From: Patescibacteria group bacterium
Lineage (GTDB): Bacteria; Patescibacteriota; Patescibacteriia; UBA1558; GWA2-36-10
Assembly (NCBI GenBank): GCA_041665545.1
Contig: JBAYIQ010000001.1
Coordinates: 137,911 to 201,910, forward strand
Reading direction: 5' to 3'
Length of the DNA stretch: 64,000 bases
The position numbers and the translations under genes are program-made. The stretch's first letter is position 1. Every line of letters starts with the position of its first letter. Below, piece by piece: positions 26,024-26,340 of the stretch. The notes under the pieces are model-generated. The model did no database searches and was not told the origin of the DNA. It saw nothing but the letters and a program-made list of their open reading frames with translations.

Positions 26024-26305
26024 GAAAAGAGGGCCCTGTGCAACGTGGTGCGCGGCAACAGGACCCCCCGCGAGGCCGTTGACATGGAGTCTTCGGCCGC
26101 AAATTTTGTTTCGGGGAGCCTCCGCAAGCGACTGACAGAGGCTCCCCAGTAACAAGTGTCGGTGACACCTTGAACCAGTTGTGACGCGCAGGGTGTGTGC
26201 CCCGCGTCAAGCAGCATGGCTAAAGCGCCGCACTTGTAACTACCCCTCGGCAATCTTAGAACCCGCATACCATGCAACTGCGGGCGAGCGTTGGTTGCCG
26301 ATGGG
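26024..26305 (-). ncRNA. GC-rich structured RNA of unknown class (about 280 nt)
   Basis: Own promoter (26312-26340); 5'/3' closing helix (CGGCAAC/GUUGCCG, AGGCCC/GGGCCCU) then U-run; internal 10-bp hairpin GGGGAGCCUC/GAGGCUCCCC; no credible ORF/RBS. Confidence 0.6.
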
Positions 26306-26311
26306 CCTATT

Positions 26312-26340
26312 GCTTATATCACATTTATAGTTTTATGTCA
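26312..26340 (-). promoter_or_regulatory. promoter TTGACA-N17-TATAAG (extended -10 TGa) of the 26-kb RNA
   Basis: tgtcaa 26335-26340, cttata 26312-26317 on plus strand. Confidence 0.55.

Follow-up and report, generated by a model that had tools for sequence, protein, structure and literature searches.

The 64,000-nucleotide window examined here (the whole stretch of contig JBAYIQ010000001.1 introduced above, from assembly GCA_041665545.1 of a Patescibacteria group bacterium) carries a gene for a structured non-coding RNA on its minus strand, between aspS and scpA. That this is a genuine RNA gene is held with high confidence. The aspS terminator is followed by a promoter belonging to the RNA, by the RNA itself and then by the scpA promoter (Table 1), and the RNA gene belongs to a young modular family that was traced at the same locus in related genomes. 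The account as a whole, a stand-alone small RNA gene from a modular family whose loops would pair with ribosome-binding sites, is offered tentatively, and we give it somewhat less than an even chance of being right in all its parts.

Transcription is driven by a near-consensus sigma-70 promoter with a predicted start at about 26308-26306. A first-pass annotation of the window had described the aspS terminator as being followed by a TTGACA-N17-TATAAG promoter, and both elements were indeed read in the sequence; our promoter scanner had overlooked the latter because it demanded a T at the last position of the -10 box. Both the promoter and the terminator of the RNA are kept in the related loci L004 and L097, and L007 and L008, whose RNAs are of the short B-type, have the same TGATATAAG together with an AUAGG start. 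At the 3' end (about 26027-26024) the U-run that had been noted earlier was found as part of a terminator, with a long hairpin followed by UCUUUUC. GC content amounts to 57% over positions 26001-26300 and 60% over the transcript (56-60% for the block), compared with a window average of 40%.

Folding of the 293-nt region gave a minimum free energy (MFE) of -138.4 kcal/mol, compared with -108.9 +/- 4.7 kcal/mol for 200 dinucleotide shuffles (z = -6.27), none of which was as good. The consensus structure, computed with RNAalifold from the three full-length RNAs (window, L004 and L097), comprises 92 pairs arranged in five consecutive stem-loop domains. Within it 90.9% of cells are paired, compared with 41-46% in controls with the partners slid along by 1-3 columns. 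In the comparative alignment with covariation test that the first-pass annotation had recommended, 14 of the 92 pairs show double compensatory changes, whereas column shuffles give 5.9 +/- 1.8 (0/500 reach 14) and the slid controls 0-2. With three sequences only, the shuffle statistics are indicative and not proof, and the slid-partner control, which keeps the relatedness of the sequences, agrees with them. The full-length RNAs are 60-65% identical to each other, whereas the flanking scpA and aspS DNA is 87-90% identical; pairing has therefore been preserved under fast sequence turnover, the RNA evolving about 3-4 times faster than its neighbour genes. With the covariance model R1 the three full-length homologues reach 260-308 bits, and since the conserved G-U pairs fit the minus strand only, the strand of the RNA is fixed as minus. 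The conservation of promoter and terminator, the stability of the fold and the covariation together bear out the earlier claim of a separately transcribed, GC-rich structured RNA.

The RNA is a string of hairpins and not a closed rod. The internal helices proposed in the first-pass annotation all reappear in the consensus of the three homologues, CCCGCA/UGCGGG as P1a, UUACAAGUG/CACUUGUUA as the base of P2, GACGCG/CGCGUC as its tip and GGGGAGCCUC/GAGGCUCCCC as P3. Double compensatory changes number three in P1, one in P1a, four in the helices of P2 (88-100% paired) and three, all G-C/A-U swaps, among the 15 pairs of P3 (97.7% paired). The helix that had been thought to close the molecule by joining its 5' end to its 3' end fared differently: pairing of GGCAAC/GUUGCC reaches only 62% in the homologues, and the end-to-end helix as a whole, at 62-93%, is no better paired than in shuffles (167/500 reach it). 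We reject it on this evidence from the homologues; the same nucleotides sit in the better-supported P1 and P5.

A protein-coding reading of the region, either as an extension of ScpA or as a 92-aa open reading frame (ORF) inside the RNA region, was considered and rejected. The 316-aa ORF at 25260-26210 (minus strand) is scpA with an artefactual 5' extension into the RNA, as the first-pass annotation had maintained on seeing the two fused; short homologues, frame-breaking indels and the conserved ATG and promoter of scpA all speak for this. Most ScpA homologues are 233-239 aa long and start at a conserved MHKI, and the scpA ATG with its own promoter is kept in all loci. Only the three closest relatives (ScpA 91-100% identical; loci with window-type RNAs) are called longer, at 253, 303 and 281 aa. 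These public calls (P0001, P0002 and P0003) are 17-67 residues too long because the GC-rich, stop-poor RNA has been translated as though it were the N terminus of the protein. Between the RNA homologues there are 1-2-nt indels (alignment columns 79, 93, 105-106, 125, 161, 169 and 221), which would break any frame, so that the RNA is not coding; the 92-aa ORF has no Pfam match.

The first-pass annotation had recognised no known RNA class, and this stands after comparison with Rfam 15, in which the RNA has no match at gathering score (whole window) or at E<=10 (551-nt locus, 25900-26450). Nine related loci and other GC-rich regions yielded only tRNAs and noise at E<=10 or E<=5. Two sub-threshold matches were discarded, mir-9242 representing the bare P3 hairpin and an RNAI-terminator-like match only the hairpin shape of the aspS terminator. 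ARAGORN called six tRNAs and no transfer-messenger RNA (tmRNA) in the window. RNase P RNA, tmRNA and signal recognition particle (SRP) RNA were likewise rejected as identities, with no Rfam or ARAGORN match at the locus, and inspection of the RNA sequence by eye revealed neither a P4 sequence of the GGAAAGUCC type nor a tRNA-like end, nor the domain IV motif of SRP RNA. The Rfam models of RsaE/RoxS and RNAIII gave no match at E<=10 on the locus.

Significant internal repeats or arrays are absent from the RNA, and a search with R1 over the window and 93 loci (609 kb together) and over 44 further loci (348 kb) turned up no additional copy. Over these approximately 960 kb the model retrieved only its three source sequences and, at E = 0.14, the terminator of L010. 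The RNA showed no similarity to phages, plasmids or IMG/VR contigs; scans of IMG/VR with two RNA-derived patterns produced 0 and 43 hits, and none of the 43 loci fits R1. A mobile or repeated element, be it a miniature inverted-repeat transposable element (MITE), a guide RNA associated with an insertion sequence or a TIGR/CRISPR-type array, was rejected on the grounds that the RNA is single copy in the sequence searched, repeat-free and flanked by housekeeping genes.

Table 1. Coordinates of the RNA gene, its domains and neighbours, and the GC-rich genes of the window (domain nucleotides are numbered within the RNA).
Feature	Position	Strand	Description
aspS, upstream neighbour	26378..27772	-	464 aa; stop codon 26380-26378
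aspS intrinsic terminator	26346..26370	-	AAAAACGACCCGGCGGGTCGTTTTT; read in sequence; RNA promoter directly downstream
RNA promoter	26313..26341	-	-35 TTGACA 26341-26336, 17-nt spacer, extended -10 TGa-TATAAG 26321-26313
RNA gene	26024..26310	-	287 nt as modelled, 60% GC; fold, covariation, covariance model
P1 domain	26242..26306	-	closing helix nt 5-19 with 56-69, around hairpin P1a (CCCGCA/UGCGGG)
P2	26148..26241	-	irregular hairpin of ~95 nt, nt 70-163; base UUACAAGUG/CACUUGUUA, tip GACGCG/CGCGUC
P3 hairpin	26113..26147	-	GGGGAGCCUCUGU...GCGGAGGCUCCCC; nt 164-198; conserved GUCAGUCGCUUGC loop; window-type RNAs only
A-rich single-stranded linker	26099..26112	-	GAAACAAAAUUUGC, 14 nt; unpaired in MFE and consensus structures
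P4 hairpin	26071..26098	-	CUCC in apical loop (..GACUCCAUGUC..)
P5 terminator hairpin	26024..26070	-	conserved C-rich loop G-CACCA-C, then UCUUUUC; 96% paired
scpA promoter	25993..26021	-	TTGGAA (26021)-N17-TG-TATAAT (25993); kept in all related loci
scpA	25260..25970	-	236 aa; true start ATG 25970
GC-rich genes	12763-14079, 30221-30412, 50837-51253	-	53-58% GC (range over six genes)
GC-rich genes	51801-52700, 55959-56693, 56859-57257	+	53-58% GC (range over six genes)

A modular family at the aspS-scpA locus

The neighbourhood aspS-[RNA]-scpA-scpB-rluB-dac-tpiA was recovered from several other assemblies by exact-protein look-ups, and ScpA homologues place the window in the Patescibacteria/Parcubacteria, with 'Candidatus Komeilibacteria' as the nearest group. 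Full-length versions of the RNA (285-286 nt) are present in L004 and L097, in which ScpA is 93% and 91% identical, and versions of 234-241 nt in L010 and L102 (80% and 78%). Short versions of 129 nt and 99 nt occur in L007 (84%) and in L008, L098 and L099 (83-84%), and from L101 the homologue is missing altogether. Judged by sequence, the family thus appears confined, among the loci retrieved, to Komeilibacteria-like genomes with a ScpA at least 78% identical. A metagenome scan anchored on ScpA contributed four loci with little upstream DNA, and a genome scan with a ScpA alignment returned, among the matches listed, mostly distant phyla.

Local alignment of the RNAs gave z-scores of 8.8 for the window and L010, 5.1 for the window and L007, and 23 for L010 and L007. 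The RNAs of L010 and L102 have the same domain order with P1 and P2 and no P3, and share the CGGCA/UGCCG helix of P1 with its inner hairpin as well as a long hairpin equivalent to P2. In the short forms of L007 and L008 an unstructured 5' region of about 25-45 nt takes the place of P1-P3, and the promoter, AUAGG and the 3' module are shared. Common to all versions is this 3' module, in which the P4 hairpin, its loop of the CUCC type, is joined through a UC(G/A)CG linker to the terminator hairpin, whose loop is CACC(N)A. Between lineages P4 and P5 have wholly different stem sequences; the loop of P5 reads G-CACCA-C in the window, CACCCA in L007, CACCAA in L008 and CACCCA in L010, on four different stems. 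As the 3' module is kept and the 5' part varies, we posit that the former is presumably the conserved, functional core and that the GC-rich 5' domains are lineage-specific additions.

Farther relatives also carry a GC-rich small RNA, complete from promoter to terminator, downstream of aspS, namely L105 (ScpA 83% identical), L014 and L103 (both 62%) and L017 (57%). The bodies of these four RNAs have no detectable homology to the window RNA and are not alignable with it. What L105 has in common with the window RNA is the layout of the 3' module only, with a CCUCC loop, UCGCG and a terminator.

Several other small elements were observed at the same locus. An extra, unrelated small RNA of about 140 nt, here called element A, separates aspS from the homologue of the window RNA in L007 (2511-2750), L008 (2626-2835), L098 and L099, and is also found in L101 (717-900), which has no such homologue. 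It has its own promoter and terminator, an AU-rich 5' leader and a domain closed by CCUGG.CUGCCG/CGGCAG.CAGG; it has no Rfam match, and its body shows no homology to the window RNA. In L097 a 190-nt inverted-repeat element (60-250) is located inside the aspS terminator, and in L007, L010, L101 and L102 hairpin elements of the CACCCCGUUAAA...UUUAACGGGGUG type, 50-150 nt long, stand between the RNA terminator and the scpA promoter. These small palindromic insertions look like MITE-like mobile palindromes.

On the aspS side of the locus, the window holds two class-IIb aminoacyl-tRNA-synthetase paralogues in tandem (26378-27772 and 28323-29702, both on the minus strand), of 464 and approximately 430-459 aa and each with tRNA_anti-codon and tRNA-synt_2 domains. 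A tRNA-Thr(CGU) and a 100-aa orphan ORF are situated between them. Going by its length, the aspS copy is without the usual bacterial insertion domain.

Loop motif and candidate targets

In Staphylococcus aureus RNAIII (hairpins 13/14) and in RsaE/RoxS, C-rich loops pair with Shine-Dalgarno regions or ribosome-binding sites, and the 3' module suggests a comparable mode of action for the window RNA. The promoter gives rise to a transcript of about 285 nt that folds into P1/P1a, P2, P3, the A-rich linker, P4 and the terminator P5; promoter, terminator, fold, covariation and non-coding status are shown. According to our model, the exposed C/U-rich apical loops of the 3' module, which resemble the anti-Shine-Dalgarno sequence CACCUCCU of 16S rRNA, might then bind mRNAs at their G-rich ribosome-binding sites and thereby prevent the initiation of translation, and the GC-rich 5' domains may add stability or a second binding surface. 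That the RNA acts in trans by pairing its C/U-rich loops with Shine-Dalgarno-type sequences is, by analogy with such RNAs, our best guess, though in our judgement a rather doubtful one.

The position of the motif is what points to this mechanism. In the hairpin preceding the terminator, the loop contains CUCC or CCUC in 9 of 11 RNAs at the locus, compared with 4 of 23 other apical loops (Fisher p = 5e-4); counted by distinct type, the figures are 7/8 and 1/15 (p = 2.5e-4). In L014 the corresponding loop is UUCACCUCCUUA, which we take to be the canonical 3' tail of 16S rRNA. Together the loops of P4 and P5 give the last two hairpins the look of an anti-Shine-Dalgarno mimic.

A number of observations weigh against pairing with ribosome-binding sites. 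Exposed CUCC or CCUC occurs anywhere in the molecule in 35-73% of dinucleotide shuffles, so that the position-free test is not significant, and the Fisher test overstates independence because several of the RNAs counted share descent. The motif lies partly in the P4 stem or in a loop of 3-5 nt in the window RNA, L004 and L010; L102 has CUCU instead, and L103 is without the motif in the hairpin before the terminator. Folding of the whole RNA as a duplex with the translation start regions of the window produced uninterpretable long-range pairings and no specific extended complementarity. If the core genes lack Shine-Dalgarno sequences, the pool of targets would be very small. Finally, the approximately 200 nt of covarying P1-P3 exceed what a pairing RNA needs and are left unexplained by the model.

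Potential targets are suggested by the way in which translation starts are marked in the window. A Shine-Dalgarno sequence (GGAG, GAGG or AGGA at -20 to -4) precedes 3 of 43 long ORFs, which is below the background of 7.5%, and the ordinary AT-rich genes have A/T-rich leaders. Six genes of high GC content (Table 1) differ from these. In the five larger ones a GGAGG-type site lies 6-8 nt ahead of the ATG, in three cases AAGGAGG, the 63-aa ORF at 30221-30412 also has a GGAGG-type site at this distance from its ATG, and all six have a TTGACA-N17-TATAAT promoter to themselves. For five of these genes Pfam, PHROGs and NCBIfam gave no match, which makes them orphans; the sixth encodes a DHH phosphoesterase whose best match is a phage PHROG. 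The genome thus seems to hold two gene classes with different translation-initiation signals. As the GC-rich orphan genes are led by Shine-Dalgarno sequences and the AT-rich genes are not, the former are the natural candidate targets of the RNA, in particular the few with AAGGAGG. A more specific proposal, in which an anti-Shine-Dalgarno mimic selectively silences a few GC-rich, AAGGAGG-led and apparently acquired genes among core genes free of Shine-Dalgarno sequences, strikes us as improbable. If it were true, foreign or accessory genes would be under RNA control at the step of ribosome binding, and the Candidate Phyla Radiation (CPR) would have its first described regulatory RNA.

Further GC-rich elements were noted in the window. 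A second candidate RNA of about 370 nt and approximately 58% GC extends over 35010-35385 on the minus strand, with TTGACA-N17-TATTAT-like signals and an end formed by a hairpin and a U-run; it contains no ORF, has no Rfam match at E<=5 and is not similar to the RNA at 26 kb. The first-pass annotation had raised the possibility that the two RNAs share sequence blocks, and the comparison uncovered none between them, nor between the RNA at 26 kb and the other GC-rich islands. A 48-nt sequence, CCACTCGATTCGCCTTTTGCTTCGCAAAAG.CTCACTCGTGGTCTACG, is present twice with 98% identity, at 19619-19666 and at 58095-58142 (minus strand). One copy lies just past a tRNA-Thr(GGU) and the other past a 68-nt GC-rich element (about 58140-58207, minus strand), which ends in CCACCA, lies downstream of a tRNA-Val and was called as nothing by either ARAGORN or Rfam.

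Alternative readings

The RNA might instead bind a protein or be a component of a ribonucleoprotein, with its loops and P1-P3 serving as contact surfaces for a protein or ligand and not as seeds for pairing with mRNA. Long covarying helices combined with conserved loops (GUCAGUCGCUUGC in P3 and CACCA in P5) are typical of protein-recognised RNAs, the duplex scan of start regions in the window found no mRNA target, and a length of 234-287 nt at 60% GC in a 40% GC genome resembles the GC-rich RNAs described by the Breaker laboratory (PMC11109978, PMC8723152). However, P1-P3 are dispensable in close relatives, which have forms of 99-129 nt (L007, L008), and the whole gene is missing in L101. No protein gene is linked to the RNA, its neighbours being aspS and scpA-scpB-rluB in every locus, and the 609 kb searched hold no second copy. 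We consider this reading unlikely, albeit one that deserves serious attention.

An effect in cis on scpA is also conceivable, the RNA being either a leader with conditional read-through or a unit whose strong transcription would occlude or insulate the promoter of scpA. The close spacing is in favour of this, as the U-run of the terminator abuts the -35 box of scpA (26024 and 26021), so that the scpA promoter starts about 5 nt past the U-tract. Every relative down to 57% ScpA identity moreover has an RNA gene in the aspS-scpA interval, mostly directly upstream of scpA. Nevertheless, scpA retains its own conserved promoter and leader, and in L010, L102 and L007 unrelated palindromic insertions of 50-190 nt part the terminator from that promoter. 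The RNA of L103 stays with aspS and is separated from scpA by an entire gene on the opposite strand. With no conserved alternative anti-terminator pairing either, control in cis is a distinctly improbable explanation.

A divergent 6S-like (or Ms1-like) RNA, which would bind RNA polymerase and damp transcription, appears highly improbable to us. The scpA-scpB-...-rluB/dac neighbourhood is, as we presume, reminiscent of Firmicutes and was counted in its favour, as were the strong promoter and the notorious divergence of 6S sequences. The position downstream of aspS also matches that of 6S-1 (bsrA) of Bacillus subtilis, which according to a title in the reference list of PMC3299989 was discovered in the aspS-yrvM spacer. 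Against this, the RNA has no match to the Rfam 6S model (RF00013) at gathering score or E<=10, and the homologous loci gave none either. The rod with paired ends that such an RNA would form is contradicted, since the 5' end belongs to P1, with compensatory changes, and the 3' end to the terminator hairpin; the end-to-end helix fails in the homologues, and the consensus has five consecutive stem-loops in place of a large central bubble, the open-promoter mimic from which 6S RNA templates pRNA. Close relatives, in addition, carry versions of 99-129 nt or none (L101), and an RNA that is truncated or missing in close relatives is a poor fit to a global housekeeping regulator.

Scarcely credible is a non-functional GC-rich relic (a decayed mobile element or acquired DNA) or a coding extension or small ORF: the window does hold several GC-rich islands, which are orphan genes that look acquired and follow similar TTGACA-N17-TATAAT promoters, turnover at the locus is fast and the RNA is absent in L101, and public gene callers have translated the region, but 91% of pairs are kept by compensatory changes at 60-65% identity, the 5' end of the RNA has no Shine-Dalgarno-ATG, in contrast to the GC-rich genes, and the frame-breaking indels, the missing Pfam match of the 92-aa ORF and the lack of repeats, of a second copy and of phage, plasmid or IMG/VR similarity all contradict it. 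The probability left over by the pairing, protein-binding, cis, 6S-like and non-functional or coding readings goes to something else.

Novelty and relation to known RNAs

The Patescibacteria, or CPR, account for a large part of bacterial diversity and have small genomes with few known regulators; our literature searches found no regulatory RNA, small RNA or 6S RNA described for them. The RNA family is new, with no Rfam match and no counterpart in the CPR small-RNA literature, and at the same time familiar in kind, as a stand-alone bacterial small RNA with a promoter and an intrinsic terminator. It is accessory and probably regulatory, not housekeeping. The locus provides a concrete, covariation-supported RNA gene with defined promoter, terminator and domains, and a natural series of variants and deletions (99 to 287 nt) that reveals the part retained, the 3' module. 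It also carries a warning for annotation, in that public gene calls run ScpA into the RNA, a recurring mis-annotation that is corrected here. Should the GC-rich orphan genes led by Shine-Dalgarno sequences prove to be linked to it, RNA regulation would be tied to the unusual signals with which these organisms initiate translation; otherwise the RNA would be one more lineage-specific small RNA of modest general importance. The RNA is narrowly distributed and dispensable in close relatives, and we regard the finding as moderate and not striking.

With the 3' domain of RNAIII and with RsaE/RoxS, the window RNA shares an own promoter and intrinsic terminator, several stable hairpins and, as it appears, C/U-rich loops on the last two hairpins including that of the terminator. 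It differs from them in its loop motifs, CUCC and CACC(N)A as opposed to UCCC or CCCC, in belonging to a different phylum (Patescibacteria), in having no sequence or covariance-model similarity to any Rfam family, and in its 200-nt covarying 5' domain, which has no counterpart there.

The resemblance to 6S RNA (RF00013; 6S-1/bsrA of B. subtilis) lies in an abundant-type promoter, a length of a few hundred nucleotides and, as far as the reference list cited above tells, a position directly downstream of aspS. Unlike 6S RNA, the window RNA is without a stem closing its 5' and 3' ends, a central bubble or a match to the model, and it is dispensable and highly variable among close relatives.

Searches by the Breaker laboratory for GC-rich intergenic regions (GC-IGR) and with DIMPL have brought to light GC-rich, structured intergenic non-coding RNAs of AT-rich genomes, for example the raiA motif RNA (PMC8723152, PMC11109978). 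Like these, the window RNA occupies a long GC-rich intergenic region of an AT-rich genome, has a covarying multi-helix structure and its own promoter and terminator, and has not been assigned a function (PMC8723152, PMC11109978). Those families are all in Rfam 15, and the window RNA matches none of them; in comparison it is far narrower in distribution (ScpA at least 78% identical) and modular, with a content that shifts between close relatives.

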